Assembly (NCBI GenBank): GCA_020137815.1
Contig: CM035361.1
Location: 3,658,001 to 3,722,000 of the forward strand
Source of the DNA: Hormiphora californensis
Taxonomy: Eukaryota; Animalia; Ctenophora
DNA: 64,000 bases
Direction: 5' to 3'
Position 1 is the stretch's first letter. The number at the start of each line of letters is the position of its first letter. Under the pieces are notes generated by a model. That model saw only the letters and a program-made list of their open reading frames with translations, searched no databases and had not been told where the DNA came from. Both the position numbers and the translations under genes were made by a program. Shown one piece after another: positions 6,551-52,881 of this stretch.

Positions 6551-8586
6551 TATCCGTGTCAGCGTTGCGAATATAAAAGTTGAATTGCCCAGACTCTGAC
6601 TTTTCCAGACTCTGACTTTTACTCACAGATCGACACGGATCATTGTCTATTGCGCACCCAGACCCCCCCCCCCCCGGTTCCGCCACCCCTGATATCGTCT
6701 ATTCAAGGTGGTCTACTAGCTTGCTGCCCGATCCTGTCTTTCCACATTTGGATAGGGAATAACTGTATTAATCGCCTGAAATAGCAACCTAAGTAAATAT
6801 AATATTTTAGCGATATAGTGAGGGAGATATAATATTTTAGCGATAGTGAATTTGAGTGAGCAAGAACTATAGCTATAGCAACTCTGGAAAGATATAGATT
6901 CACAGAATCAGGATGATTCTTAGATGATTCTTATCTATAGGTCTGGCAGACTAAAACTCAGATCCTATATAAGTGATATAATCTAGATGATAGAACGTAG
7001 CTGATTCTAGGTTTCTATTTTTCTAAATCCTAGGTTCCAGAATTAAATCTTATCTAGTGGCTAATGATTCTAGGCAGGAAGTAGGAACCAACCGAAACAA
7101 GTAAACAACCAATCAGAACTCGTTATTTAGGTCACGTGACTGGTCATCAGCCAATCAGGGACCAGTATTTCCTGATTCGGTCGGTTCCTGATTCTAGATT
7201 TTCTAGGTTCTAGAATTGCAGTCTTGCAGACTCTAAAAAATCCCATATCAAGATTAACTCCTAGTACGAGATAATTCATATGCTGCAGTCGCGATCGATC
7301 TTGCAGACTTTAACACTTTAACTCCTAGTAGGAGATGATTCTACTAGCTCCTGCAGCCTAGAGTGCAGACTGGATCCAATATTAAGATCCGCCTAGTAGA
7401 GTCTAGGATCTCATTTGGATTCTCCCGCGTATCATGCAGCTACCGCAGAGTGAAAAGCGTGAATTATATTATATCCTAATAATTGAATATCCCATCTGGA
7501 ACAATCTCATACAGGGCATATTATATACTGAATTTTAGCTGATCTATATCCTCCATAAATATTCTGAAGTTTCGACTCTGCTGCAGTAATCTGCAGTGGC
7601 CAGTGCTGCTGCACATATCTGAGCTCAGCTATGAACTCTAGGTTGCGTTTGAACCATGAGAGACAGCTTGTATACGTCTTATCCTGCTAATATCTGGTCG
7701 AAATTGCAACCTTCATCCTAAGAAATTAAGTAAGTATACTTATTTAGCAGAATTTAGCAGAGCTAAGATGAGGAGTTATAACTCCTCATCTTAGCTCTGC
7801 TAAATTCTGCTAAATTCTGTCGAGCTCTTATACTTTGTCAGTCATATTGTGCAGCAATAGCTGATCAGTAATATATATTCAAGGCGACGTGTGTCTGTGC
7901 ACACCTTTATGTCAAGGTCAATTGAGAATGACTAATTAATTAGTTTGAATGGCTAGCCTAATTACTAGCCTTATTACTAGCCTATAATTACTCTTGACCA
8001 CTTCCCATTAAAACCGCGCTTTTAAATACTAGCTAACAGTGCACTTTCTCGCTTGAACAATATTAGTTTTGCTGTCGCCTGTCAGTTTTCTAACTTAGCT
8101 CTCGACCAGGTTTCAATGCACCAGACCCCAGACCCGATCTGAGCGATGCTGAAAACAACGGGGTTAGCTCCAGAATTATTTCTCAGATATATTAGCCCCC
8201 CCCCCCCCGGCACCCCATTAACTAATAATATAACATCAACTGTTATATAGAAATGATATTGGTAGTAGCGCTCGTTTTATCGGGCCAGATCATGGTAGCA
8301 GCAGGAGGGGAAACTTTGGTGGCAGCAGGAGGGGACACTTTGGATGATCTTCTTGTGGCTCGATTCAACGGTACAGTGATCGGACCCCGGTAAATCGGGA
8401 TACCGGTAAATCGGGGCCCGCTAAATCGGGGTACCGGTAAATCGGGGTACCGGTAAATCGGGGCCCGGTAAATCGGGGTCCGACTGTATATATGGTGTTA
8501 CGACATGATTAGTAAATTCATAACCAGTTAATTTAACATCTCTCTCCCCCTCCACAGATTTAATAAAACTGAATCACATTGATGAG

Positions 8587-11500
8587 ATGGGGGAGGATGA
8601 GAGGATGATGCGAGGGGCTGTTTTCTCCATTGCCTGTCTCGTATCAACACCTAATTGGAACACCACTACTGAGTGAGTTTTTTGTAGTATTTTGTAAAGG
8701 CAATATATTTGTAATACAAATACTTAAATAACTTTAAAATACTTTACTCTTCTAAATGATTAGAATAATTTTAGTAGTGGAACTGGATATTAAATGATCG
8801 GAAGATTTTGCTAAGAATAACCTGACCAAGTATGATCACGGCGGGAACATATAATCAGTTTAGACGATTCGATAAAAATACTAATGCCCCTCTTTACCGG
8901 GTGGAGGGGGGGGTAAATATTTTTATGCACTTTCGTATATGTGCCTGACATATTATGTATATCATGGTGCAGGTGGAGTCTACCGCCCGTCATGACACGT
9001 ATACTGCCGGACCCTGATTTAGGGACACCCTCGGGGGAAAGGCTCTTGTCCACTAAATCGGGGGCCCCTAAATCGGGGTCCGACTGTTATAGTATCATAC
9101 TGCATAAAAAGATTTTAAGATTATAACGGATTGCAGTGACTATTGTATGACAGCGATGTAATTTATGTAACGCTCTAATTTGGATTATATCCAAGCTGCA
9201 GGACTGATTTTACTTGTTAGTATCTGCAGCAGGAACCGACCGAATCAGGAATTACTGGCCCCTGATTGATAACCAGTCACGTGACCTAAATAACGAGTTC
9301 TGATTGGTTGTTTACTTGTTTTGGTCGGTTCCTGATCTGCAGATCAAAAACAGTAATTTGTTGAGAACGTCCCTCAGCATGAAGTATTAATTAATATAAT
9401 ATGACCGTCCCAGTAAACATACAGTTCCAATATTATTGAATATAAATAAGAACAAACAGATGGAGTCCACTGGAGCAAGGCCAGTGGCCACCCGCGTCTG
9501 GGTATCAGAAACAAGTTTTTAAGAACTTTAATCGGCATGGTCACTGGTCAGTCCCAATATACATGGCATGCAGATATTAGGGTTATTTTGTTCAAACTCT
9601 ATAACAATCAGGAATTTGTTTTATAAGATCCCGGTTAACCTAGATAGCCCGGATATTTGACATTTTTGAGATTTTAAAAGGAAGCTCGTGGAAATTTTTT
9701 ATTTTCATTATGACGTCATAGAATCTCGTCTCAGCATATGATACCCCTAATTATCTCGGCCAAAGATGCACGTGCTTCTTTTTCAGGGTATCATTATATG
9801 ATACCCTGTATCATAAGGCATTATCATTATAGGATCACTGAAGACTGAAAAGTAGCGGATCAAAGATATCCAATCAGTCAGGCACGGCCAGAGTAGCATG
9901 GGAGCTTTTTGCTCCATGTGCATGGCAGCAGGTCGATTCTGCAGCAGGAATATATTCAATCGGTGAGATCATAATCATTCTGCTGCAGAATGAACCAGAA
10001 CCTTCCCTTTTTTGAACCTCTATCTCTCTAATCTATAATGTCAATATTACTGGCCGACTCAATGAATTCCAACCCCCATCTCTCATCTCAGAGCATCAAA
10101 TTCAAACCCCAGATATCTCATATCTCAGAGCATCAAATTCCAACCCCATATCTCATCTCAGAGCAACAAATTCAAACCCCAGATATGATCTCATATCTCA
10201 GAGCATCAAATTCCAACCCCCATTTCTCATCTCAGAGCATCAAATTCCAACCCCATTTTTCATCTCACATCATAAAATTCCAACCCCCATCTCTCATATT
10301 CTCAGAGCATCAAATTCCAACCCCCATCTCTCATATCTCAGAGCATCAAATTCCAACCCTCATCTCTCATCTCAAAGCATCAAATTCCAACCCTATCTCT
10401 CATCTCAGAGCATCTCAGAGCATCAAAATTACCTTCTCATCCTCTCAGAGCATCCCAACTGTGTCCGGACATCACCACGGACGCCCTGTACCTCCCAGAG
10501 GAGCTAGACTCAATGAACTCGGGCACAGTTCTGGAGAAGAACAAGGAGATGGTCCCGCCAACAGAGGATGTGCCAGAGGAGGACCGATATTGGGGGAGGG
10601 CCAGACGATCGGTTAGTTATAATTATTGTTAATTAGTGATAATTAATTAATTCGGGCCCCGATTTACCGACCCCTGAATTACCGATATTCACGCCCGATT
10701 TATCTGGGTCAAATACCGTGCACCCCGATGTACCCGAGCATGAACCCGGTAAATCGGGGCCCGACTGAGCTCATTATAATCATGGCTTTTGATGCACAAT
10801 TGCCCCAATTGAAATGTCATTATAACAGCTAAAAGAACTAGGCTCACATTATTTGATAGTCTAGTCATGATGATGACAAATTAATAATGTGACAGCTCTT
10901 TCTCTTTCTCAATTCTCTCTCTCATCCAGATTATTGATCTTAGCCACATCAATTCATGCTCTCTCTTTCAGGGTACTCCAAGTAGTTTTGATGTCAGGGA
11001 TGAGCTCAATTGGGTCTCCGATCCACCGGTCCAGGGTGTATGCGGAAACTGCTATATTCACGCAGGTAACATCTGTAGTTTAAATACATCGTAATTGCAC
11101 TTAGAGACATGGTTTCGTGGCCGAGCGGTCTAAGGCGCCAGTTTAAGGCACTGGTCCTCCGGGGCGTGGGTTCGAATCCCACCGAAGCCAACTTTTTTTG
11201 GCATTTTTCTTTTTCCTTTTTTGTATTTCATCGTACCCAGTTAAGTAATAAATCAAATAGCTAATTAACAGAATTTATAGTAGCTTTTACCGCAGGGAGC
11301 AGGGAAAAAAGTACATTTAAAAAAAGCATTTAAAGCCGTATCATACTTTCGACTACTTTAAACAAAAAAGTTGGCTTCGGTGGGATTCGAACCCACGCCC
11401 CGGAGGACCAGTGCCTTAAACTGGCGCCTTAGACCGCTCGGCCACGAAACCATGAAGATAACGCAATTTGGAAATACCAAATACACGTACAAATACATCC

Positions 11501-14500
11501 GGAAGAAAGAAGTTAAGTTTTGCAATAAATTGGCTTCTTTGAGCTGGATTTAACTAACTAAACGGAATCGCGTATTTCTCGTGGTTTCGTGGCCGAGCGG
11601 TCTAAGGCGCCAGTTTAAGGCACTGGTCCTCCGGGGCGTGGGTTCGAATCCCACCGAAGCCAACTTTTTTGTAAAATTAACTACAAATTTCAGGGAAATT
11701 AATATTAATTCATCCCTTGTAAAACATTGTTTTAAAGTTTAAATTTAGCAATACTTTTTACCGTGTTTATTTTATCTAAAAACTATAGAATCACAACCAA
11801 AAATTCCAAAAAAAAGTTGGCTTCGGTGGGATTCGAACCCACGCCCCGGAGGACCAGTGCCTTAAACTGGCGCCTTAGACCGCTCGGCCACGAAACTATG
11901 TTAATATTGCAATTTCACTTAACTATATATGCTATAAATTTCAAGCGCGGCTGACATTGCATTATGTGTTATTTCGAACACCCTAGTTATAAATTACTAA
12001 TAATTGATTTAATTAATTATTTTCAGCTGTGTCATCGCTTGAGATCGCCAACACGCGGGCAACGGGAGCTAGGACATTCTTCTCTCGCCAAGAGCTGACT
12101 GATTGCTTCTTCAGGGGATGTGAAGGGGGAGATTTTAGGTATTTAATCATATTGCATCTCTCAGTCTCTAATATCCAATTCTATGGCAGTGGCCACCATT
12201 GACAGTATGTACATAAATCTCATGCATAACATCTAATTTATATCCCCCCAATTTAACAAGTAAAACCGCTCTCACAACCCCCTCCCAATTCCCCTGCCCA
12301 GAATGGTTGCTAACATGCTCGCCACAATGGATCATCTTGCATCAGCCCACGAGTATGGACCTTATCTGTCGAGGGGGGCTAAGCATGGATTTGCATGCAA
12401 GGCATCCCTTACACCAGATTCTCTACTCGGTATAAAGGTACGTTCAGACACGTAGATAATAGATATTTTCTGAAAATTCATGCAGATGGTTTACATATTT
12501 TATGTTTATATTAGAAATTCTATTTAATTATCTTGATCTTATAAATATTTTATTCCAATAAACGATCTCACAAGTATAAAATCAATGTTAATATTAAATA
12601 TCATATTTAGGTTGAGGGATACAGACCAGTTACGGTTGATAACTTTGAACGCTCCATAATTAAATATGGCTCTGTTATCGCTTGCTTTGATACAGGTATA
12701 CGGTGGCAGATTCCGGCCAAGAGTTTTTTTAGTCAAGTGAAATATTTTTGCTTGAAGTTTTATAAAAATTTTATTTAAAAATAAAAATAAACATGTCCTT
12801 AAAATTATTGGCCGGAATCTGCCACGCGAGTGGCAGATCTCGGCCAAGATTCTAAAAAAACCTTGGCCAGAATCTGCCAACCACGTGGCAGATTCCGGCC
12901 AACAAACTAATTTTACTTATATCAAAGCGAAAACCGATGTACCCGACTAATTTTGATACGCTGAATCACGTAAGCAACTTTTCCAATCCCTCAGAGGTCG
13001 GGAAAGTGTCCTAATTGAGCATAATAGGGTCTAATTGACCCCACTTACAACTTTTCACCTGGAAACGATAGACGCTTATGTGAAGGCACTTTTCCGACTA
13101 ATTTTGATACGCTGAATCACGTAAGCTGTTTATCAAAGCCCCCCGAGGTCGGTAAAGTGCCCTAATTGAGCAATTAAGGCCAATTAGACCCAATTATACT
13201 TAATTAGGCCAAATTCCCGACCTCGGAAGGCTTGGAAAAGTTGCTTACGTGATTCAGCGTATCAAAATTAGTCGGAAAAGTGCCTTCACATAAGCGTCTA
13301 TCGTTTCCAGGTGAAAAGTTGTAAGTGGGGTCAATTAGACCCAATTATGCTCAATTAGGACACTTTCGCGACCTCTGAGGGATTGGAAAAGTTGCTTACG
13401 TGATTCAGCGTATCAAAATTAGTCGGGTACAGCAGTTTTCGCTTTGATATAAGTAAGTTTCAGTTTGTTGGCCGGAATCTGCCACGTGGTTGGCAGATTC
13501 TGGCCAAGTTTTTTTTAGAATTTTGGCCGAGATCTGCCACTCGCGTGGCAGATTCCGGCCAATAATTTTAACAAAATGTTTGTTTTTATTTTGAAATAAA
13601 ATTTTTATAAAACTTCAAACAAAAATATTTCACTTGATTGAAAAAAAACTCTTGGCCGGAATCTGCCACCGTACAGGTATAATACTTGATTAGATTGGAT
13701 TTGAGATACTAGATTAAGTTAGATTCCTTCTTCGAACATATACGTAGTTAAATACACTAAATATTAATTAGCTGATTATTAAAAGCTGGCGTTTTAAACT
13801 ATAAAATATTAATTATTAAATGCTGGATAACAAATTACAGGTCATAAAAGTAAAACGTGCGGAGAGAATTATTTGCATCTCCCCGGTGGGGTGCTGGATG
13901 GACCTGCGGTGGACGGAGGGTGCACCCATGCCATCCTACTCGTGGGGTGAGTTTGGGCAGGTTTGGGCATATTTGGGCAGGTTATTATTCCTCCGATTTC
14001 ATGATTTTCGCGGCTTTTCTAAGGCCATGACTTTCGCAGCTTTTCACTCAAAGTTATTAATGAATTTTTAACCAGGAAAAGTCATAAACAATATTTTGAG
14101 ATAAGATTGTTATATCAATATCAATTATATACGTTATAACATATTATATTTGTTGCCTAGATACACTCCGGAATACTACATAGCACGTGATAGCAGAGGT
14201 GTTTCAAAAGGTAACCGGGGATACTTCAACATAAAACGAGGAGGAAATGTCTGTGGAATTGAAGACGACATGGCGGTAATTAATTGATTAATTACATATT
14301 ATCAAGTACATAATTAAATATTCAAACATGCCACTTTTTAACTAATTCATCAATCTGAATCAGAGTTTTAGTTGCAGATAAGTTGGCATTAATCGGTATA
14401 AGTTTATGATGAATCGCCCCATTCTTCATCTTCAAAAGTTGTCAAATCAATTTATTATTAATTTACTTATTTATCAATCAGGCTCTAGTGACAGTTCGAA

Positions 14501-16065
14501 GGAGAGGATCAAAGGCGGTTGCTTCTAGGACCCACTGTCCACTGGACAAGCCCCGGTTTTGCCCCCAATCTTTCTCCTGTACAAGCAACAACCGGTGTTT
14601 TGATCCGTATGGGCGATCGGGCGAAAGGAGGAAACGGAGTGCGATGTCCAAAAGGGTAATTGTTGTGAAAGAACAACATCTCTCGCATCTCTTTCATTTT
14701 ATCTCACGCTCTGGTCTCTAGACGGTGTCTAGACGGTACCGTCCCGGCGTCTGGACGGCGTCTGGACGGTGTCTAGACGGTATCCGTCCGAAATTGAGAC
14801 GGCACGTCTGAAAATTGTACCAGACGTTGAGACGGACTTTTAGAACTCCGTCTGTATTTCAGACGGAGTTTTAAAAGTACGTCTCAACGCAGTCTAAAGG
14901 AAAATCGATGAAAGTACCGTCTAGACAACGTCTCAACTGAAACCGGTCAAAATACCGTCTAAACAACGTCTAGACAACGTCTTAAGCGAATCCGATACAG
15001 ATACCGTCTAAACAACGTCTCATAGTATCAGCCATAAACAGTATCTCACAGTTGTATTACAACGCGATAGCTGGATGTAAGAGTGAATGTGGAGATACCA
15101 AAACAGTTTGGCTGAATGTAAGAAGAAACAGCAACCCGCCATTGTCGTCTCATGAATGTAAAGGCGCGAAGTTTAATTCTTTAGACTGCCTACCACACAT
15201 CTACCACTAATTCCAACTGGCATGGGTAATCCAGAATGGTCTTCGAAAACGGTCGAGTCTAGACATCATTATTTGAGACGTTTTCTAGACGTTGTTTAGA
15301 CGGTATTCTTATCGAAATTGCTGGAGAAGTTGTTCTAGACGGTATTTGAAACTGAATCGCGAGATTCTGTTTAGACGTTGTCTAGACGTTGTTTAGACGG
15401 TATATTGACCGGTTTCAGTTGAGACGTTGTCTAGACGGTACTTTCATCGATTTTCCTTTAGACTGCGTTGAGACGTACTTTTAAAACTCCGTCTGAAATA
15501 CAGACGGAGTTCTAAAAGTCCGTCTCAACGTCTGATACAATTTTCAGACGTGCCGTCTCAATTTCGGACGGATACCGTCTAGACACCGTCCAGACGCCGT
15601 CCAGACGCCGGGACGGTACCGTCTAGACACCGTCTAGAGACCGTCTGATACCGTCGCAACACCGTCTGATACCGTCTATAACCCGTCTAGAGACCGTCTG
15701 ATACCGTCTATAACCCGTCTCAAGCAATTTCGGTACCGTTTTTAGCTGATTTCACCGAAACCCGTCCAGACGCCGTCTAGACGGCGTTGCGACGCCGTCT
15801 AGACGCCGTATGCCGCAAATGAGAAATTGCCCTCTTATCTCCCTCCTATCACCCTTTTATAATAACCCCCGCTTGCCACCCTCCCGGGACACCAACTTTT
15901 CTCACTCTTATCTATCTCTTATCTCTCTCTCTCTCTCTTATCTTACTCGTATCTCACATTACCCTCTTATCTCCATCTTATATCCCCTTATCTCCCTCTT
16001 TATATCTCACTGTTATCTCTCGTTAATCTCACTCTTATCTCCCTCCTACTCTGATCACCCTCTTA

Positions 16066-16163
<98 letters not shown>

Positions 16164-18415
16164 GCTCTTATCTCCCTCTTATCTATCTCTCTCTATCTCT
16201 CTTATCTCTCTCTTTATATATCTCACCATTATCTCCCTGTATATCTCCCTCTTATCGCCCATTCTCCATCTTTTCTCCCTCTTATCACCCTCTTATCGCC
16301 CTCTCATCTCCCTCTTATCTCTATCTTTAGTCTTTATATCTCGCTCTTATCTCCTATTCTCCCTCGCAGGAAACTAACTTTTCCACCTGTGAAGACACGA
16401 TCCAAAGCTGTTTGGTTTTCCGGAACACAGGTCGATGCTCTCAGAGCAACGTGAGGAACACTCTGTGCAGAAAAACGTGTGGAACGTGCACGAGCACCAT
16501 GTAAGATCAGCCAATCAGAAGATGCCATTACTATATCACGTGATCTATATTGACCAATCAGAACACGCCATTACTATATATCACGCAATAATTGTTAACC
16601 AATCAGAACACATGTTTCACAGGAATGTTTGCCGAGATTTGAGTGGATCATGTTTATCCTTAACTCCGGAGCAGTGCAAAGTTGGAAACATGAACAGAGC
16701 TTGTCCACAATCTTGTGGAATGTGCCGAGGGTAGGTTCATTAATTAATTAACTAATTTACTATTTAACTAATAGGCTAATTATTTAAAATTTTACTAGCA
16801 GCGGACTTTATTCTAGCTCACGTGTGACTTGTGTATCTTTTTTTACTAAAATTGTTGACCATTCAATCACGTGTGAAGGGCGGGTCAGCTATTATTAATA
16901 TCTAATTTCCAGGAACCGACCCAATCAGGAAATACTGGTCCCTGATTGGCTAATAACCAGTCACGTGACCTAAATATCGAGTTCTGATTGGTTGTTTACT
17001 TGTGTCGGTCAGTTCCTGTCTAATTTCTACTATTTCTATCCCCTCAGATCACGTGGAGGGAGACAAAGAGGACGGTTTATTGGTCACATGGCACTTGGTG
17101 GCCCCAAGGCGCTGTCAGGAGATTGTGCTGTTCCAACCATTGACCACGGACGCGTCATGACATCACGGTATGTTATTGTAGGGCATCACTCAGATCACGC
17201 GTGACTGATCACGCATCCAGCTCACGCGTGATTGATCACGCACCATGGTCATTAAGATTCAATGGTCCTGAATCAAATCAATCTCTAAATTAGGTCGAGA
17301 TTGGTGAGCGGAGAGAACCTGAATGTTGAATGTGATCCGGGTTATGTTAAGACTGGACAGGCAGTGACTTGTGTGATACAAGAGGTGTTCAGTAGAGATA
17401 GCCGCTTCCATCCTTCTTGCATCGAGGTTAGAAAATGAACGTTCGTTTAGCGCTTTCATGGTGACAGTGCTCCTTCATAAAATATTTTGTGCGCACAAAC
17501 AAGTAAATAATTATTCTTGGCACTTTTGGCCGTTTGTGATTATTTTCGAATTCAATTCATGGTTACCATGGTTACCGCCCTGTAGGTTGGTGGTGAGGAT
17601 TATACTGGAACGGGCGAGGATTATAAAGGGATCAAAAGTACATCCGCCACGGGAGAACAATGTCTCTACTGGAACAGTGCTATCGCATCAGGTATTAATA
17701 ATTCCCCTGCCTTCAAACTTTCACCAACTTTCCAAGTAAAACAATTAATCAATTGTTAATTATTCAACTTTTGTTTAGGCTCTCTGACCGGCCTCGAGAA
17801 AAAGGACTTGTTTCTAACGGAGAATCACAACTTTTGCAGAAACTTTGGAGGGATCGAGGTAATTTAATATTTCAATGTACAGTCGGACTCCGATTTAGTG
17901 GCCCCCGATTTAGTGGCACCCCGATTTAGTGGCAGGATTTCCCCCGAGGATGCATCTAAATCGGGGTCCGACTGTACTACATTTATCAGAATAAGTAAAT
18001 TAATTAATTGAATCTACGTTTTTAGGTAATGCCTTACTGCCTTGTGGACGTTGGCGGGTCAATTCAGGAACAACTCTGTTTCAAGGTACTTTTCACTAAA
18101 TCTTTTTTCTTTTTATACACAATTTGGAAATACGCGTCACCGGCGTGGGTTTAATTTTGCAACCTTGATTCGATCGGGAATGCTATATTACAATTGTTAA
18201 ATGTATTTTATATCCCGTTATTATAAATTTCGTTTCAGACTCCCAAATGTGAGGTCTGTGAAGGCCCTGAAGACCACCCTACTTCAACCTTTAACTGCAA
18301 CCAATTAACGGAGTGCGAATACGGAGAAGGACCAGAGACGGACGGCATGACGTGGAATTGGAAGTATTGTACCGCTACTTGTTGTAGGTTGTCTGGTGAT
18401 TTGTGTCATAATTAG
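8587..18415 (+). CDS. Multidomain papain-family (C1A) cysteine peptidase: propeptide - peptidase - 4-Cys mini-domain - ShKT x2 - Sushi/CCP - kringle - ShK-like Cys-rich domain (spliced)
   Basis: 16 phase-compatible GT-AG exons: 10449-10611, 10972-11065, 12027-12138, 12302-12437, 12611-12695, 13841-13946, 14161-14275, 14482-14655, 16370-16500, 16623-16730, 17048-17167, 17294-17426, 17586-17691, 17779-17858, 18026-18085, 18239-18415 (~632 aa, TAG stop). Papain motifs: PSSFDVR, QGVCGNCY (Cys at 11050), FSRQELTDC..GCEGG, HAILLVGY (His at 13927), GYFNIKRGGNVCGI. The 5' exons (8587-8672 MGEDERMMRGAVFSIACLVST and noisy pieces to ~9960) are uncertain. Confidence 0.9.
10060..10455. repeat. ~30-bp minisatellite (catctcagagcatcaaattccaacccc) ending at a splice acceptor
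   Basis: About a dozen degenerate units; the last ctcag|agcatc is the acceptor of exon 10449. Confidence 0.9.
11111..11190 (+). tRNA. tRNA-Leu(AAG), copy 1
   Basis: Acceptor stem GGTTTCG/CGAAGCC, anticodon arm CCAGT-TTAAGGC-ACTGG, long variable arm, GTTCGAATC T-loop/B box, T-run terminator. Confidence 0.95.
11372..11451 (-). tRNA. tRNA-Leu(AAG), copy 2
   Basis: Exact reverse complement of copy 1, followed by a T-run on the minus strand. Confidence 0.95.
11583..11662 (+). tRNA. tRNA-Leu(AAG), copy 3
   Basis: Identical to copy 1, followed by acttttttg. Confidence 0.95.
11818..11897 (-). tRNA. tRNA-Leu(AAG), copy 4 (G1->A variant)
   Basis: Reverse complement of copy 1 except the first base is A, giving an A1:C72 mismatch. 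Confidence 0.9.
12701..13671. mobile_element. Foldback (near whole-length palindrome) non-autonomous DNA transposon, Mutator-like TSD length
   Basis: cggtggcagattccggccaagag ... ctcttggccggaatctgccaccg; arms pair almost to the centre; flanked by the 10-bp direct repeat tacaggtata (12691-12700, 13672-13681). Confidence 0.9.
14713..15810. mobile_element. Foldback element with internally repeated (ccgtctagac-type) arms
   Basis: ~300-bp arms (14713-15020 vs ~15370-15643) built of short gacgg/ccgtc repeats around a unique spacer; the repeats continue to ~15810. Confidence 0.75.
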
Positions 18416-19484
18416 TTACACTAGTTAATTAATTGGTAAACAAGTTAAATAATTAGTTACTAATTAGCTAATTAGTTAGTTTAATTAGAGAGATAATTAC
18501 AGCTCCGAGCAAAACCAGAGACTCGATATTTTAAAGTTAACATCTGAAAAACGATGGAAAATTTATTTTAACAATTATTGTGCATGTGAAGTATATTTGT
18601 TATTTATTTAATCTTTATTTCATCCAAGATATGTATGCAGGACAATTCTGTGAATATGATAATTTAATTTTTGAGTTAGACATCACCGAGTTAATTATTG
18701 TGAATATATCTACAGTCAAACCTCCATTTGTGCATGGTAAATATTCGTATTTATGAGGAATTTACCTGTCCAGCAGGAACCGACCGAAACAAGTAAACAA
18801 CCAATCAGAACTCGTTATTTAGGTCACGTGACTAATTATCAGCCAATGAGGGACCACTATTTCCTGATTCGGTCGGTTCCTCCAGTATAATAAGCTGATG
18901 TTCCGGTAAGTCGAGGTTTGACTTAAAACTCAATATATACATATACTGTACAATTACCCATTGATTTTGTTTTATTCTGCATTTGAAATTATTTTGTTTT
19001 CACTGTCTCGATCTGTCCCCCGATTTACCGGGATACCCGGGGGAGTTTCCCTTTCCCCGGGAAAGGGTTTTGCCCGGGGTTAAATACCAGGGGTTAAATA
19101 TCAGGGGAGTATGTATCTTCTTGGTAAATCAGGGTTCCGGTAAATTGGGGTCTGACTGAATTTTCACTGCGCTGGCAAGCACAAAGGTGGCCACCCTCCC
19201 CAAACCTTTCCCAAAAAGTGTATTTGAGGTTTCTACTAATGGGATATTTCAGAAAGGATCCATTTAAGGTATAATAACGCCAAATCGCATTTTATAAACT
19301 CAATCCATAACATCCTTACAAGCAGCTTGTAATCATCCAGGTGCACTTTGCTGACCCTTTGTCAATTTTCACTGGCCCTTTCTCTCCTGACACAAGACAA
19401 AGCTGTCTGTCGGCGCCATGATACCCAATTTGCTCAGATGGGTTCGCGGCGCCAGACAGAGACAAAGCAGTCGGTATAAAACTC

Positions 19485-23897: not shown

Positions 23898-26800
23898 ATG
23901 ATCAAGCCTAAGAAGTATGATTGGAAGGATTCCAACATGGCCCTTTTTGGGTCCGACCTGGATAAGGGTGTCAAGAAGGAGGCGGCCAAACTTGAACCTG
24001 CCTGGGAGGGATCTGGTAAGAAATTACTTTACTAATATTAGTATGAATTTAGTCGTAATTTTACTATACTTTTATCTAAAAATGAAAGTACCCTAGACAT
24101 AGCTTCCGCGTGAAACATCCCTCTGATCAAGAACCGACCGAATCAGGAAATACTGGCCAATGGCTGATAACCAGTCACGTGACCTAAATAACGAGTTCTG
24201 ATTGGTTGTTTACTGATACCCATATAATTTCAGGTCAAAAGGTTGGTATGGAGATCTGGAGAGTCGTCAAGTTTAAGATTCAGAAGTGGCCTGTTGAGGA
24301 CCATGGAAAATTCTACAGTGGAGACTCTTACATTATTCTCAACACTTACAAGTAAGAGCTAAATTGCAACCTATTCTTGCTCCTATGTGAGATCGATCTC
24401 AGTCGCGCGCGACGTCGATCTCACTCAGGTATCAATGTGGCCAATACAAGTAAGAGCTAATTTCATGTCTATATGAATGAGTAGATCTTGTACAATTTTA
24501 TTAATTCAGTTAAAGGATATTTTATCTTCAATTCAGGAACACTATAGTGCATTCATTGTTCATTCATCACTCATCAGGAACCCTTAGTTTATTCATTGTT
24601 CATTCGTTAGGAACCGTTAGTTTATTTATTGTTCATTCATTGCAGGAACCCCGATGAGGATGACCTAGAATATGATCTCCACTTTTGGATTGGAAAATAT
24701 TCCACACAGGATGAGTATGGAACTGTTGCCTACAAAACTGTCGAGTTGGACACTTACCATAACGATAAACCCGTCCAACATAGGTGTGATTAGTTAATTA
24801 GTTGGTAATTAATTAGTAATTAGTGGTCCAGCACAGGTGTGATTAGTTAATTATTAATTGGTAATTAATTAGTAATTAGTGGTCCAGCACAGGTTTTAAA
24901 ACCATTGATGAGTTAGTATTAAGCGATCCGTAAACGTTGACATTTAATTTTCTCAACACAGCTGCCCTATGCAATAAACTATTAGTTAATTAATTAGTTA
25001 ATTGATGACTATTCCAGGGAGATCCAGGGAAATGAATCAAGTTTATTCCAGACCTACTTCCCCAAGGGAATCGAGCTGCTGAAGGGTGGTGCTGAGAGTG
25101 GATTTAGGCACGTCAAACCCACAGAGTATAAACCTCGACTTTTCCAATTCGTCGGTAATTACAACAACAAATTGATCCTTGTGTTTTTTTAGGACACGAC
25201 ATGACAGCTTCACATATTTAATTGATCGCTATAATAGATAATACAAATTAAAAACGACAGCAGTTTTTAAGGTCTATACACATGTTTCATGGTGCCCCAC
25301 GAGGAGGCACCAATCATATAAGATAATGATAATTTTAGTTATTTTAAAGTTTAACACCTTATTTTCAGGCACAACCTATGCCAATACCGTCATCAAAGAG
25401 GTGGGTCTCTACAGGCAGTCACTGAACAAGGAGGATGTTTTTGTTCTTGATCGAGGTCTGGAGATCTTCCAAATTAACACTCCTAAATGCGACAAAGATG
25501 AAAAGGTAACTAATAGTTATATCATATGCCCAAATATGGACAATAGTTACTAACTATTGTCCATATTTGGGCATATGATATCATCACATGTCCAAATATG
25601 GTCATATATGACGTTGACACACCTAAATTCGAGAAAGTTTATTTTGCCTTGCAAGCCTTGTCTTTTCTGTTCTAACCGCTTCCCGATCTATAGAATATAG
25701 ATCTATCGAGTTGCTTAGTTGCTCATTAATAAGCACGTCAACTGCTCAGGAACCGACCTTAAGTTAACTAATTCTAATATATCTGTTTGGTTTCATAATT
25801 CACACCAATGGTGTTGGTGAATAATCAAACCAAACAAATATATTTGCACTGCAGCCTCCACCATCTCATCCAAATAATTCTAATATGTACTTGTAGGTGA
25901 AGGCAATGCACTATTGTTTGAAACTAAAGGATGAGAGATGCGGAAGACCCAAGATTATCCAGGTTGACGACAATAACCCTCTAGAGGAAGAAAAGGTGAG
26001 TGAGCTGCACGTGCAGATATCGGGAAGGGGGAAAGGGGCAAGAAAAGGTGAGTGAGATGCACGTGCACCCCTTCTTGGCTCCATTGCAACCTATTCTCGA
26101 TCTCACTCAGGCATCAATGTGGCCAACACCCTTTCCAACAACAGATCTGGGAAGATCAATCTAATCTTTTTATTACAAAATACAACCAGCTGAAAGGGAG
26201 TGCCACTAACTATACGCACACTTAACTATAATATATACTATTAATTAATCAATTAACTAATTAATTAACATTCCTAAATAGGTTGCTGAGGTGATCAAGG
26301 ATAAGACGAAGAAAGAAAAGACCGGACCTCCCCCTGGACCACACACCAACAAACTCGTCAAGGTAGGAGTCTAGAAACTGATCTTCTTCTAGGTACTAGA
26401 GTAATAATAATTGTAGAACTAGTAGTAGTAGTACAGTCGGACCCCGATTTAGTGGCACCCCGATTTAGGGACAGAATTTTTTTTCCCCGATATAGGAAAT
26501 TAACCTTATTTGACCCCGATTTAGTGGACACCCCGATTTAGTGAACAAGAGCCTTTCTCCCGAGGGTGTCCCTAAATCGGGGTCCGACTGTAGTAGAAAT
26601 TATTTAGTGGAAGTAGTAGGTGCTATTCATATAATAGTGGGATAAACTTCTATCATTAGTTAGTAAGTTTAATTAGTTATTTAACCAATTAATCATGATT
26701 TCACCCCTGATCAGGTGTCGGATGAGTCGGGAACCTGCAAAATGGTTGAGATTGCCAGTGGTCAGCTGGAACAGGACCAACTTGACCCCAACGATGTCTT

Positions 26801-27150
26801 TATTGTCGACCTGGAAAAGGAAATCTTTGTGTGGGTCGGAGACAGTAAGTTTACCAAATATTAAGGGTAACCATGGTAACCATGGTAACTAGGACATGGT
26901 AACCATGGTAACCATGGTAACTTGAATTTCTAAATTTCAACGCCATAGAACAGCTGTTTCCTAATTGGTATATTGATGAATATCCAATGTTACCTTTGCA
27001 GACGCGAGTAGTGAGGAGAAGAAGAACGGAATGGCATACGCCCATACCTACGTCTCCAAGACTGACAGACCACTGAGGAGTATCAGCGTGGTGAACCAGA
27101 GACGGGCACACCATTGTTACGCCATGATGAACAAGGCGAACACAGCATAG
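23898..27150 (+). CDS. Gelsolin-like protein (three-domain severin/fragmin type), 368 aa
   Basis: 9 phase-compatible exons: 23898-24015, 24234-24351, 24646-24783, 25018-25154, 25369-25505, 25897-25995, 26282-26362, 26715-26844, 27002-27150. Motifs [94 protein letters not shown]. Confidence 0.95.
26433..26590. mobile_element. MITE family B (Tc1/mariner-pogo-like, TA TSD), representative copy
   Basis: ta|cagtcggaccccgattta...taaatcggggtccgactg|ta with internal ccccgattta repeats. Related copies near 4287, 8373, 9003, 10652, 17880, 19010, 23411, 43494, 47070, 49460. Confidence 0.85.
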
Positions 27151-28190
27151 ATTCTGCAGTGATTGTGCGGTAGTTCTGCGGTAATTCTGCACGGCTAGAA
27201 CCTTCTGCAATGATCTACATGAGAAGTTTGTTCTGGCACGACTTCAAGAACCGGAACTTTAACTTTTTTCACTGTGGCCTGGATCGACCGATATATCGGT
27301 TATAGTTCTGATCTAGAAGGATCTTGTATCAATCCGATACGAAAGCTGGTGCTTACAATTGTGGATGTGTTTTTTCCTCCAAGCTGATGAATGTAATGTT
27401 GAAAAATTTGTAAAAAATTATATTTGATCGCCTAAAAACGTTTTTTCTTTGTTTTCGCGGATTCTATTTAACATTTTAACAGTTGGTCTTCACAGTCAAA
27501 GTAATCACGTCAGGCACTATAATTAAGGTCTTCCTGAGGCCATGTTCAGGTCCCCCAATGGTAAATCCATGAACATCTTCATGGTCGACCAACTGGGGGA
27601 CCAACTGGGGGGAAAACAGTCGTGCCCGAACCTCAGGTTCTGACCGTACTCGCAATCGCTTATTGAGACGCAATCGCTTGAGATACCATGGCGTACTAAC
27701 TCTTTGGTGTTTACTGTATCGAAACAACTCTTGTTCTTTCAAGTGTATCCCCTGCAGCTCACAGAACTCGAGATCTTTCAGAGTTATACTGTAGAACAAT
27801 ATTCATCAAATTAACTCCTTGATGTAGCCTCCCCACGCCGCTGCATTTCGCGAGTGGCCCCGTGGGTGATTCACTCTTTACACGAATATATTCTTAGCCT
27901 CTCTCTGGTTTTCATTTTTTTGACGTTATGTATGCATGTTGACTTTCGGATCCACTGTCCCTTGTTCCATCGGCAGAATTACGCCGCAGAATTACGCCTT
28001 GTGTATACGTTGGGCCTGATAATGAAAGGCGTAATTCAGCCTAAATCTTGCCGAATTCTACCCATGGAACAAGGATGGAGGTTAGAGTTGGATGTAAATT
28101 CCGCTTGGGGTTTAGATAGCACTATAGCGTCCGCCTATCTCCAGGTATAATTTTGTTCATTGCAGTTCTCACATGCTTTACCCCTAATCT

Positions 28191-28534
<344 letters not shown>

Positions 28535-29275
28535 TGGGCCTCCTGCTGCACGGAAAGTGTTGAATAAGTCAGCGGACAGGTCTGGTTGGATAACGCAATC
28601 ATATTGTCAATATGCTAATATGGTTTCCCTGCCCGGATGCCTTTTGCAAAAAAGCATCTATAGGAGTTTAGGAATGTACGAGTTCGAAGCTTATAATTAA
28701 CCCTTTGGGGATGATAAGCCCCCTGTCGACAGAATTCTCTAAAACTTTCTGGAGACACTCACTTTGAACCTACTTGAACGCAGGAAAAGGAATTTTGGTT
28801 CTACCACCTGTATTTCTATTGGGTCACCTGTGACCCAATCGTCCCCTAACGCTAAAATAGGAATTGAGATTTTGCCGCTATTTTGCCCGATAACTCGAAA
28901 ACCGCTCATTTTAGACCCTATGTTTCTTCTTGCCAGGTTAGACTGTTTTTTCGCGCGCCCCGCCCGCGAACAACTTGTTTTTATAAAATAAAATAAAAGA
29001 GTTTGTACAAAACAAGTTTCTTCATAACACTTATATAAACCCGGCCATTCTGCACAGTTTGCACACCCTATGGGTCTCTCTATCTCATCTGTAGCCGATT
29101 TTAGAATTTCAAAATTGGCCGAGATGAAAAATTTTCTGAAGGAGCACGGATCTCAAAATTTTTTTCTTCGACTCCCTAAGATGTTGAGATAACAATGATG
29201 GATTCGGTTAGTCGCTAGCACCTGTTTAAAAAATGCCGTTTTAGACTTTTATTTCCTTTAAATAATGTAAATAAT

Positions 29276-30298
29276 GTGAAACGACAATGTGGACTGATGC
29301 TGAAGAACCTCTGGCAAGTTAACAAGTGCCTAGACAAGAGTACTAAGATCCTTCTTGTAAAGCAGTTGGTGATATCAAAGATTGACTATTGTAATATCTT
29401 GTACTATGGACTGCCACAACGAATCCTTCAAAATCTACAGAAGACTCTGAACTCCTGTATACGGTTTGTCTTTAATCTGAATGGTCATCAAGATGATTAC
29501 ATGGAGTATTTCAGAGAGGCTCACATTCTTCCGATACAGCAGAGATTAACTTTTAAGGCATGCCTGCTGGCTTACAAGATTGTTCGAGGAACTGCCCCTA
29601 GGTACTTGTTGGATCTGGTACCTAGGGATGAGGAATATGGATCACTGAGGATGGCGAGGGCTACAACTGTTCCAGACTTTTTCCGGCTAAAATATCCCAA
29701 ACTGTCAAGTATCAATGCAAACTCGAAGTTGCGTCGAAGAAGACTTTCGGTGTTTCTTCCTGACGTATGGAATGATCTCCCCCTTGAGCTCAGATCAGTT
29801 CATCCTGTTGATCTGTTTAAGACAAGACTAAAGACAAGGTTATTTCAGGAGGCATTCGGATCTGCTTCAGAGTTGTAATCGGAGGTGTCCTATCCTTCCC
29901 CTTTCCCGTGTCGAGCAGACAATTCTAGCATAGCAATTCCTTACTATTTCCCTTCCTAGGGCTATTATAGCAGGGGGGCTGCTGATGCAGTTGAGCTGAC
30001 TTTTGTTTGTAGCATGAGGGCTGCTGGCTCTGTTTCTTTATCCCGATTTATAGTCTGTTATTTAATTGCAGCTAACAAGTTGTTTTCCAGAAGTTTATGT
30101 GTCCCGTTTTTCCTTAGGCTTTTTTCAATTTTTTGGAGTATATAATCAGTAGATGTGTCTATTTTGTTCTAAGTGAGTCAGGATATTAACAATCTTGGTG
30201 TACCGCTCTGAATCTGGGCAGTGTTGGACTCATGTCAATGATCCAGCCCTGTCTGGACTGAGCGGTATACTAAAAACCCTTTATTATTATTATTATTA
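29276..30298 (+). mobile_element. 5'-truncated LINE (CR1/L2-group) with C-terminal ORF2 fragment 29276-29878
   Basis: LVISKIDYCNILYYGLP..LQ..LN..RFVF..HILPIQQRLTFK.CLLAYK..G.AP.YL..WNDLP..FKTRLKT; 3' UTR ends in a (tta)n tail. Confidence 0.85.
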
Positions 30299-50428: not shown

Positions 50429-52616
50429 CCCTTTGACGGCGACAGAGCATATATGCTACAGTCTATACTAGGCGGCCTGGAAGTCCTTATGTTTTATCTA
50501 GGTGGCCCATATTTTGTCACAAGCTAGTTTTAGGGATTATGAACCTGAAACCACGTCCAGATCAGCTCAGAAAATCAAGAAAAAAAATTCATAGCCCTTC
50601 TTAGGAGGCTAATTTCGGCTTTTTTTTAAAAACATTTCTCATTTTTTTGTATTTTGGGGGCACAACTAATCCTTTGAAGGAATAAAAGTGCTCGACATAA
50701 CCGACCGAATGCAAAAAGCCGCATCAAAAAATATTGAAAATTGAATGAATTATTAACATTTAAGGCGCCGTATCATATATGATACTATCGCCCGTAAGGG
50801 AATTCTAGTAACAAATCTAAATTGTACAAGTTTGTGGGTGCTATGGCATAAATTTATGCTTTCATGTGGTATGTAGCTACAAGTTCTACAATCGTGAACG
50901 GTTTTTACCAGAAAAAGAACCCAAATTTGAGATTTGTATCATATATGACACTATCGTCCTAAGGGCAAATTCTCCTAAAACATACATAATTCGGGCTAGA
51001 AAAGGAGCTAAGAGACAAATGGGGGCACTTAAATGTGTAGAATCATCGCATTAGTGGGGGTAGAGCACATATTTAGGTCGCTATCTGGATCCCTAATTGA
51101 GATAATTGGATAATTAGCTAATTATCTGTCCCGCGCGTGCTAATTATTCATGAAACTTTGCTCTGGGAAGGAGTTATGAGACAAATGGGGGCACTAAAAT
51201 GTGCAGAATCATTACATTAGTGGGGGTAGAGCACATATTTAGGTCGCTATCTGGATCCATAATTGAGATAATTGGATAATTAGCTAATTAGTTGCCCTGG
51301 AGCGCTAATAAACGAGACTTTACAGAGTATCCAAGACAAGTAGGGGCACTAAAATGCGTAAAATCATCGCCTTAGTGGAGGTAGAGCACATAGCTGAGTT
51401 TCTATTCCAACTCCTAAATGAGATAATTGGATAATTAGCTAATTGACGGTTGCACACCGTCCACTTTTCACCAAATCCCGTAGTAATCCTGAGCTCTTTT
51501 GCTCAATCTAAGGATCTTCTGGACTTCTGACAACCGCTAACCCCATTTGTATCACCTTTGACTCGTTTTACACAATAGTATAGCACTCGATACAACCCTA
51601 GACACTGCCTTCAGCTCTTTAGAACCCTCTTGCTCCATCCTAGACCTCTCATACATCCAAGATCCAACTACAATCCTATAACATTTTTATATCCTATTGC
51701 TCCTACAACACGTTCAACCTCTAATGTACTACAGTTTCCCATATTTATTGTTTGGACACACGGTTATAGGGGTTTAGGGATGTTAGGGGATGTCAGAAGA
51801 TCCTTAGATTGAGCAAAAGAGCTCAGGATTACCTAGAAACCACGGGATTTGGTGAAAAGTGGACGGTGTGCAACCGTCAATTAGCTAATTATCCAATTAT
51901 CTCATTTAGGAGTTGGAATAGAAACTCAGCTATGTGCTCAACCTCCACTAAGGCGATGATTTTACACATTTTAGTGCCCCTACTTGTCTTGGATACTCCG
52001 CAAAGTCTCATTTATTAGCGCTCCAGGGCAACTAATTAGCTAATTATCCAATTATCTCAATTATGGATCTAGATAGCGACCTAAATATGTGCTCTACCCC
52101 CACTAATGTAATGATTCTGCACATTTTAGTGCCCCCATTTGTCTCATAACTCCTTCCCAGAGCAAAGTTTTTATGAATTTTCACGCGCAACAATTTTACT
52201 AATTTCCAATTACCAACAGGGTCCAGATGTGACCTAAAATGTTTCCCCTAAAAACCCCCCCCTTTTCATGATTTCATTTTAGTGTCCCCCTTTTCTCTGC
52301 TCCTTTTCCCAGCCCCCATTATGTATTTTTAGGAAATTTCCCTTAGGACATGTATCAATATGATAACCCCCTCCAAATTTGGGGTTTTTTTCCTTAAAAA
52401 CCTTCCATTTTGCTTTTCTTTCCCCCCCTCATAAAGCTAATTTTATCCTAACCCCCCCCCTTTTTCAATTGTTTGTTTTCGAACCCCCCCCGGCATTTCT
52501 TTCTCGTGGCCCCCGCCCTTCGGGATTCTTTTTCCCTTTTTGAGGGGTTTTTTTGTTTGTTTCTCATAAAAAAAAGAATTCTATCGAGCCCCTCCTTTTC
52601 CCCCCGTCAAAAGGTT
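50429..52616. mobile_element. piggyBac-like palindromic non-autonomous element
   Basis: ttaa|ccctttgacg at the left, degraded cgtcaaaagg..ttaa at the right; long inverted arms with ~180-bp internal repeats; empty site visible near 57950. Confidence 0.75.
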
Positions 52617-52829
52617 TTAAAAATTTGTAATAACAGGGGCTTGGAAAAACTTCGTCCCCCCCTAAAAACTAAACTGTTCATGGTATTTTTTCCACGAATC
52701 GTGTTCAACGGCCTTTTTTTTTCCCGGCAATTGCCTGAATTTTTCCCTAAACTTTCATTGAATATAGTCGTTGGATCACTGAAATCAGAGGCTTCTTGGC
52801 TAAATTATAGCCGTGACCCTAGCCTCTTA

Positions 52830-52881
<52 letters not shown>

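Follow-up and report, generated by a model that had tools for sequence, protein, structure and literature searches.

Does a papain-type cysteine peptidase with a tail of ShKT, Sushi and kringle modules exist in ctenophores as a single protein, and if so, what would it be used for? The question is raised by a 64,000-nucleotide stretch of the Hormiphora californensis genome (NCBI GenBank assembly GCA_020137815.1, contig CM035361.1, positions 3,658,001 to 3,722,000 of the forward strand; hereafter the window, whose own numbering is used throughout). In this stretch, the original prediction had placed one gene that encodes a C1A peptidase, two ShKT modules, a Sushi module, a kringle and a Cys-rich end, and had regarded the product as a lineage-specific, secreted protease or toxin-like protein for prey capture, digestion or defence. 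Comparison with relatives indicates that the fusion is real and that the window gene is a member of a conserved multi-gene family, not a one-off, because the family spans 30 database clusters including eight named ctenophore paralogues. We propose, with what we consider an even chance of being right, that this ctenophore family consists of papain-type zymogens that would be secreted, cut at KR/RxxR sites into a peptidase and a tail, and used for digestion outside cells.

The claim of a single gene is borne out by relatives in which both halves are continuous. With exon 10 as the query, we found P0003, a 701-residue single open reading frame (ORF) on a 2431-nt contig. The window model aligns with it collinearly at 35% identity over 620 columns (E 3e-122), and the alignment crosses position 14655, the end of exon 10. 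A family profile built from 26 near-full-length relatives, the window not included, scores 520 bits against the model over residues 38-704, and its best 14 six-frame matches across the whole window are all exons of this gene. Exons 1-3 gave no separate six-frame matches and align only within the joined model, so that they are less sure. Peptidase and kringle marks occur together in 24 matches: 3 of these are NCBI gene models, and each of the other 21 is one ORF on a contig of 2.0-2.9 kb; as these contigs barely exceed the ORF, they fit single spliced transcripts. The condition under which the original prediction would fall, namely a separate 3' gene beyond 14655, is contradicted by these continuous ORFs. 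Two adjacent genes wrongly joined at 14655 would suit the length of intron 10 (1714 nt), its many repeats and the fact that the window-gene model is a predicted one. However, exon 10 ends without a stop codon, the phases are compatible, AATAAA was not found in intron 10, and in relatives a single ORF spans both halves on contigs of transcript size, so that we consider such a misjoin extremely unlikely.

The spliced model (Table 1) has 18 exons on the forward strand between 8253 and 18415 and encodes 710 residues without an internal stop when the joined exons are translated; 17 of 17 introns have GT/AG ends and compatible phases at their predicted borders. Since these borders were picked by eye on the window sequence, frame continuity alone is not independent evidence for the model, and the splicing of the gene is a prediction. 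All motifs quoted in the original prediction occur where it had put them, in a single reading frame, with 16 exons within 10449-18415. The start it had set at 10449 moves about 2.2 kb upstream with the addition of two 5' exons, and its list of modules had omitted a four-Cys module directly behind the peptidase. In exon 1, hydropathy over 9 residues reaches 3.58, and the BLASTP alignment to P0033 begins at residue 12. A hydrophobic N-terminus is found in the window protein and in 21 of 26 relatives, and no internal membrane-like stretch or anchor was seen in the hydropathy profile of the window protein; the proposal of a secreted product is thus likely to hold. At the other end of the gene, an alternative last exon behind donors near 18387 was dropped, and the read-through exon was retained because its Cys708 matches an invariant family Cys. 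A scan for A[AT]TAAA in the 1.2 kb behind the stop codon found none, which leaves some doubt about the 3' end. Pfam searches with single exons gave matches in 7 of the 18: Peptidase_C1 on exons 4, 5 and 9 (exon 9 at 23.1 bits, above the cut-off of 20.7; exons 4 and 5 below it), ShK on exons 11 (28 bits) and 12 (23 bits), both above the cut-off of 20.9, and, under their cut-offs as partial domains, Sushi on exon 14 (16.3 bits) and Kringle on exon 15 (24.8 bits).

The relatives were collected by searches that depend on shared five-residue words. Two follow-up searches gave 7 and 31 matches; among the 31 are 29 family members, the remaining two being an ordinary cathepsin and a bacterial C1A enzyme. 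With P0006, the family comprises 30 database clusters at 90% identity. Cluster members were looked up for 19 proteins. Eight clusters are named, four from Mnemiopsis leidyi (ACHWQZ_G000882, G000394, G000395 and G000936, two of them with adjacent gene numbers) and four from Bolinopsis microptera (LOC134824568, LOC134823997, LOC134824374 and LOC134824158), all annotated as 'hypothetical' or 'uncharacterized'; within either species, the contigs that carry the four genes are identical in length. Because the remaining 22 clusters are nameless, restriction of the family to ctenophores is likely only. Lineage specificity holds in that all named relatives are ctenophores. The original prediction had missed that the family is conserved, with four or more paralogues in either of the two annotated genomes. 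Environmental assemblies contain many records of transcript size, which suggests that the family is well expressed.

Fragments such as P0009, P0039 and P0042-P0046 were excluded from the family profile, and some clusters are represented in it by a named member. Counts out of 27 rows refer to the window gene plus the 26 relatives of the profile; these rows are related, so the counts are not independent events. Pfam searches of the 30 family rows at E<=1 matched kringle in 30, Peptidase_C1 in 27, Sushi in 23 and ShK in 7, three rows being tail-only fragments. The window gene has the family's domain order, the CGNCYxH and GCxGGD motifs and the terminal C-x3-CC module, and it retains 112 of 138 near-invariant columns, every near-invariant Cys included. 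The Mnemiopsis and Bolinopsis models share this domain order and these motifs at 31-39% identity. They differ in their single ShKT, against two in the window copy, in NSHG, where the window copy has DSRG, and in a linker longer than its 25 residues. Two ShKT modules also occur in P0003 and P0004, and the remaining 24 rows have one.

Within the family, the window copy appears to be a fast-evolving paralogue. A quick tree groups it with P0003/4 and P0036-41 at a support of 97; in the later tree, its row has a long branch that falls in no starred group, its placement is unsettled, and we therefore claim no orthology. No full-length close orthologue was found when exon 9 was compared with longer proteins, which returned only P0001, or exon 10 with a representative library, which returned P0003. 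P0002, a sheep repeat protein matched by exon 10, was dropped as a chance match. A metagenome scan with the DSRG-bearing exon 9 gave 12 loci, none of them in the family: six were cathepsin B-like ORFs, which served as outgroups, and the others weak partial matches. Separately, P0014 (with P0007 and P0013), an older Mnemiopsis model of 1030 residues, combines a family member, truncated ahead of the terminal helix, with a neighbouring gene of matrix metalloprotease (MMP)-like type, ACHWQZ_G000881; as the newer annotation separates the two genes, P0014 is likely a mis-fusion.

By profile and catalytic dyad, the peptidase is assigned to C1A, as neither a canonical cathepsin L nor a canonical cathepsin B. 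The PDB matches of two relatives' peptidases place the family nearest to papain and cathepsins H, K and L; cathepsins H, K, L and S and plant enzymes of the papain type are the best matches, and cathepsin B is absent among the best 60 rows. Against the family profile, an L-like enzyme scores 109 bits, whereas six B-like protist enzymes score 41-58 bits, and alignment to papain-like structures revealed no long insertion behind GCxGG that would correspond to an occluding loop. With Pfam Peptidase_C1 the relatives reach 100-120 bits, and a C1A profile made from the family gives the window copy 253 bits. The ERFNIN-like propeptide is degenerate: E/D-x3-R-x3-F-x2-N occurs in 9/27 rows against 0.06 expected and R-x3-F in 24/27 against 5.2, the window having only R-x3-F. 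Pfam I29 gave no match in 30 rows, and an hhalign alignment to an I29-bearing cathepsin left the propeptide uncovered; pro-cathepsin H aligns from residue 40.

The window copy retains Gln153, Cys159 and His304 (Gln, Cys and His are present in 26 of 26 relatives), which align with the catalytic residues of papain-like enzymes by way of the relatives, and three papain-type Cys pairs are present by position. The family is further marked by CGNCY[LIM]H and by an Asp behind GCxGG, each in 27/27 rows, by an extra Cys pair, and by NSHG in 26 rows, with DSRG in the single remaining one, the window copy. Given the roles of the corresponding papain subsites, the invariant Asp, which stands at papain position 67, would give the enzyme a leaning to basic residues. 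The third catalytic residue had been taken for Asn; the sequence has Asp, and the window C1A lacks both the canonical Asn of NSWG and Trp177. In the available parts of two papers, which cite Vernet 1995 and Gul 2008, papain Asn175 is described as important yet non-essential and often replaced (PMC8244254; PMC6357015) and Trp177 as helping to shield the active site (PMC8244254). Because Asn175 is non-essential, DSRG lowers the 'canonical' status of the enzyme, not its C1A membership. Sequencing error as the origin of DSRG was dropped, since P0001, an independent record with 84% identity over exon 9 whose flank matching stops at the same exon borders, carries it too; the motif thus seems to be maintained, and the window copy likely works with a Cys-His-Asp triad.

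Compared with cathepsins L, H and K and papain (MEROPS C1A, L-like branch), the family is alike in its Gln-Cys-His(-Asn) site and three Cys pairs and, less surely, in a degenerate ERFNIN-like propeptide. It differs in scoring only about 100-120 Pfam bits, in having CGNCY[LIM]H in 27/27 rows in place of CGSCWAF and NSHG (26) or DSRG (window) in place of NSWG, and in having Asp67, the extra Cys pair, KR at the end of the propeptide and a C-terminal extension of 330-430 residues. These comparisons would add to C1A a lineage with a rebuilt active-site neighbourhood, comprising Tyr26, His28, Asp67, His or Arg at 177 and, in one branch, Asp175.

How this extension would be used is suggested by the linker that precedes it. 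Behind the four-Cys module, the 27 rows have linkers of 17-162 residues, often acidic, and that of the window copy, with 25 residues, contains RRKR plus KR. Convertase sites are expected to leave an asymmetry between KR and RK, and KR pairs number 100 in the linkers against 22.1 expected from linker shuffles, whereas the reverse pair numbers 17 against the same 22.1. A KR or RR stands at most two residues from the first ShKT Cys in 19/27 rows, against 1.7 expected, and shortly ahead of the mature peptidase in 26/27, a count made with no control. As KR is enriched in the linker, the ShKT-Sushi-kringle tail is likely cut off the peptidase, and enzyme and tail would probably not remain one chain. 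Plant RD21-granulin and cruzipain are built alike, with the peptidase first and, behind a linker, a Cys-rich extension that is removed on maturation. In the window family, the extension consists instead of ShKT, Sushi, kringle and an unnamed Cys module, and the linker is dibasic and often acidic, not Pro/Thr-rich.

The linkers of P0005, P0007, P0008, P0022 and their kin also contain repeated KREVR[IV]PGE-type motifs between acidic stretches, together with a conserved VPG[KR]L..[LM]L.KRG helix. These motifs resemble released peptides and are missing from the window copy. Linker peptides were not found in four supplementary files of a ctenophore peptidomics study, which gave one unrelated match (PMC9525235).

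If the tail is released with an ShKT module at its front, it could act as a toxin. In such a prey-capture or defence protein, the tail would act on ion channels or cells of prey or predators and the peptidase would be a spreading factor; we consider this quite unlikely. In its favour, ShKT follows KR directly in 19/27 rows, like a propeptide-released product, and a PDB search with exon 11 gave weak matches to ShK and to an ShKT from a nematode (E 0.01-0.1). A Lys or Arg stands beside an aromatic residue at the ShK pair position in 12/27 parsed ShKT segments (Lys-aromatic in 2/27, Arg-aromatic in 10/27, with three rows unparsed). ShK toxins act through a Lys-Tyr functional pair, and this pair aligns with Asn-Val in exon 11 and is missing from both window ShKT modules. 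By eye, the alignments show no conserved cleavage site behind ShKT, so that ShKT would stay tied to about 220 further residues. In the available part of the tentacle study of Mnemiopsis, a partial C1A model is listed among the tentacle candidates; the tentacle and colloblast candidates are without significant toxin-domain overlap, and kringle (PF00051) is absent from the candidate tables (PMC6278862). The toxin-like character put forward in the original prediction is therefore a weak reading, and judged by the Lys-Tyr pair, the window gene does not appear to encode an ShK toxin.

The kringle and Sushi modules point to another possible role. For Sushi, the four Cys are invariant and Pfam scores exceed the cut-off in P0005 and P0009. 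The model of a relative's Sushi module matches CCP domains with a best Z of 6.6, a middling value, and a root-mean-square deviation of 2.2 over 62 residues; Foldseek gave it a probability of 1.0 but E>0.001. The tail model of this relative is good for ShKT and Sushi only, and the fold searches cover those two modules; an AlphaFold2 model of a full-length relative, with a predicted local distance difference test (pLDDT) score of 37, was not used. The kringle of P0003 scores 49 bits (cut-off 34.3), relatives align with plasminogen and HGF, and the window pieces align in order. Contrary to the kringle quoted in the original prediction, the first Cys is missing in the window copy, the residues most frequent at columns 572-580 of the 26 relatives include no Cys, and five Cys are left. 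With the first kringle Cys missing, the last would be free, and since the Cys of the terminal module are odd in number, a bond between the two is a reasonable inference. That module has no Pfam match, and hhalign aligns it to ShKT with a probability of 8% over 9 columns. The Atlas search gave a weak ShK lead for the module of a relative (0.80, below the useful level) and nothing for exon 18, and the structural model has a pLDDT of about 50; an ShKT-like origin is a weak lead.

Plasminogen and complement-type proteases use kringle and Sushi as docking modules, and a protease of matrix remodelling, wound response or immunity, docked in this way on mesoglea, cell surfaces or microbes, would account for the presence of both in the family. 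Like plasminogen/HGF and the complement serine proteases, the family combines a protease with kringle and CCP modules; its kringle matches plasminogen and HGF, and its CCP fold matches factor B, factor H and CR2. It differs in having the modules behind the enzyme, one of each, in another catalytic type, and in a kringle without Cys1 and the lysine-site acids. In kringles, lysine is bound by acids behind CRNP, which are visible in the aligned plasminogen kringle 4; the Asp-x-Asp behind CRN is missing from all 27 rows, and its first Asp alone occurs in 1/27. Furthermore, docking modules stay joined to the catalytic domain in those enzymes, whereas the linker here looks made for cutting. In favour of such a role, Hydra ShKT-astacins are morphogenetic according to the available part of PMC9848320, and one Mnemiopsis paralogue adjoins an MMP-like gene, whereas the window neighbour is gelsolin-like. 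Considering all these points, we regard the matrix or immune role as unlikely.

We return, then, to digestion outside cells. The pharyngeal juice of ctenophores is acidic and proteolytic, and its enzymes had not been identified at the time of a 2019 review (PMC6733828). Inhibitor studies had indicated tryptic and cathepsin B-like activity (Fankboner and Reid 1978, as cited in the available part of PMC6733828). The review proposed co-option of lysosomal enzymes for extracellular digestion and asked about a separate origin (PMC6733828). A secreted and expanded ctenophore C1A family fits the search for such a protease, and a preference for basic residues could make an L-type family look B-like in the old assays. 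In the mechanism that we propose, the zymogen, with its signal-like start, would be exported through the secretory route, and a furin/PC-type convertase or the enzyme itself would remove the propeptide at RARR and cut the linker. The free peptidase, with its four-Cys module, would then cut proteins in the acidic pharyngeal juice, leaning to basic residues by way of the invariant Asp67. The separate tail of about 300 residues would be a binding module, not a channel toxin, and would target, sort or restrain the enzyme on prey, mucus or matrix.

The available part of PMC9848320 describes ShKT-astacins as mostly epithelial or digestive; these are alike in being secreted zymogens with ShKT behind the catalytic domain in an epithelial or digestive setting. 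They are zinc metalloproteases, whereas the window family would be a cysteine protease with Sushi, kringle and a cleavable linker in addition. Overall, the gene appears to work like other tailed C1A zymogens and ShKT-astacins, with a non-standard kringle. Further background came from the available part of PMC9712828.

The same kind of enzyme could act inside cells, as a lysosomal or phagosomal cathepsin whose tail would be a sorting or folding aid destroyed on delivery. The cathepsin L/H-like peptidase with its propeptide would suit this, and ctenophore canal cells digest by phagocytosis (PMC6733828). The Cys pattern of the tail and many of its surface residues are, however, invariant in the family, beyond the needs of a disposable aid, and the convertase-type KR sites point to secretory granules; we consider such a function very unlikely.

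Several observations weigh against the proposed extracellular digestive enzyme. The peptidase is nearer to the L-type than to the B-type, whereas the old inhibitor data point to 'cathepsin B-like' activity. One of three C1A models in the tentacle candidate tables, ML00328a, is a 320-residue partial model whose membership in the family is uncertain (available part of PMC6278862 and its supplement); a checksum comparison with 83 proteins gave no match that would link it to the family. The linker KR is missing in 3/27 rows (P0034, P0035 and P0041), and the KR of the window copy lies six residues ahead of ShKT, not adjacent to it. Papain Trp177 is replaced by His throughout the family. At two positions invariant in 26/26 relatives, the window copy has changed, Asn320 to Asp and this His (His322) to Arg. 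It loses 26 near-invariant columns, compared with 0-18 in the relatives, and no family member has a longer branch (2.48). Taken together, these changes make reduced activity of this copy possible.

If reduction went further, the window copy would have little or no activity as an enzyme and would act as a binding protein or tail carrier, while the NSHG paralogues catalyse. DSRG in 1/27 rows, the longest branch, Arg at the Trp/His position and the loss of the conserved Met272 and Trp274 would all agree with this. On the other side, the window copy still has Gln153, Cys159 and His304 together with every disulfide Cys of the peptidase, DSRG is shared with P0001 (84% identity, same exon borders) and hence maintained, and papain Asn175 is non-essential (available part of PMC8244254). 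We consider a weak or dead enzyme distinctly improbable and retain the digestive enzyme with a Cys-His-Asp triad as the preferred reading of this copy.

A bolder form of this reading, which we offer tentatively and think rather doubtful, sees in this family the protease for extracellular digestion that has long been missing in ctenophores. It would then be a lysosomal-type enzyme turned into a secretory-granule polyprotein. From one precursor would come a basic-preferring papain that has a rebuilt active site and can cut KR itself by means of Asp67, and a tail protein of ShKT, Sushi, kringle and Cys modules that has a separate target on gut cells or prey. If true, ctenophores would have built a modular secreted protease from a cysteine protease, where other animals built theirs from trypsins and astacins, and the Cys-His-Asp copy in the window would be a further re-engineered paralogue.

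All component parts are of known kinds, and the function is a prediction from their sequence. The original prediction knew of no described C1A protein with this combination, and our full-text literature searches, which covered papers outside subscription, likewise found no description of C1A with ShKT, Sushi and kringle, nor any prior account of a C1A lineage with a kringle/Sushi tail. Term searches in the available parts of the Beroe genome paper (PMC11184263), a mesoglea preprint and the peptidomics supplements (PMC9525235) gave nothing on the gene family. The family thus offers a concrete set of ctenophore candidates for the pharyngeal-juice proteases, with accessions in two species.

Table 1. 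Predicted exons of the window gene and the features they encode (window positions)
Exon	Position	Strand	Content
1	8253..8370	+	ATG and hydrophobic signal-peptide-like start, residues 1-39; upstream of the range in the original prediction; least secure exon
2	8558..8672	+	Propeptide; degenerate ERFNIN-like helix, R...F retained; F62 retained (25/26 relatives)
3	10449..10611	+	Remaining propeptide; ends RARR/S, furin-type site ahead of the putative mature peptidase
4	10972..11065	+	C1A peptidase begins; oxyanion Gln153 (11032-11034); catalytic Cys159 (11050-11052); CGNCYxH
5	12027..12138	+	C1A; GCxGG, then Asp199 (12131-12133) at papain position 67, Asp in 27/27
6	12302..12437	+	C1A; 33.5 bits by itself against the family profile
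7	12611..12695	+	C1A; Cys271, member of the family's extra Cys pair
8	13841..13946	+	C1A; catalytic His304 (13927-13929)
9	14161..14275	+	C1A end; DSRG in place of family NSHG; Asp320 (14189-14191), Arg322 (14195-14197)
10	14482..14655	+	Four-Cys module; short linker behind it containing RRKR (14626-14637) and second KR
11	16370..16500	+	ShKT module 1, six Cys, without Lys-Tyr pair
12	16623..16730	+	ShKT module 2
13	17048..17167	+	Linker, then Sushi/CCP begins (Cys512)
14	17294..17426	+	Remaining Sushi/CCP: Cys539, 552, 568; CCP-like fold in a relative's module
15	17586..17691	+	Kringle begins; first kringle Cys missing
16	17779..17858	+	Kringle core NHNFCRN; without Asp-x-Asp behind CRN
17	18026..18085	+	Kringle PYC...C
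18	18239..18415	+	Last kringle Cys; unnamed terminal Cys-rich module ending C-x3-CC-x6-C; stop codon

The downstream neighbour (about 23898-27152, + strand) is a multi-exon gelsolin/severin-like gene, with Pfam Gelsolin matches on two exons at 13.9 and 20 bits, under the cut-off. Further downstream, a 219-residue ORF (29219-29878, + strand) resembles, by eye, the end of a non-LTR (long terminal repeat) retroelement ORF and has no Pfam match. From about 52000 to 64000, homopolymer runs and a strong skew give the sequence a noisy appearance, which suggests a low-accuracy assembly; the gene region is free of this.

The introns contain several repeats. In intron 2, a tandem array with a unit of about 35-40 nt (10075-10430) lies just upstream of exon 3, whose acceptor resembles the unit end. 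The four tRNA genes in intron 4, all tRNA-Leu(AAG), form two inverted pairs (11110-11192 +, 11370-11452 -, 11582-11664 + and 11816-11898 -), with arms 88-100% complementary. Four bases behind the start of intron 7, a 1-kb foldback element has inserted (about 12700-13671, arms 94-95% complementary); because the 8-bp direct repeat at its flanks duplicates the exon 7 splice donor, the exon retains a donor despite the insertion. A second foldback element in intron 10 (14713-15642), with 280-nt arms 98% complementary, is followed by a CT microsatellite. Finally, a dispersed repeat of about 110 nt (9230-9345, 16911-17018, 18774-18881 and elsewhere) and a second, GC-rich dispersed repeat have several copies in the introns and flanks of the gene.

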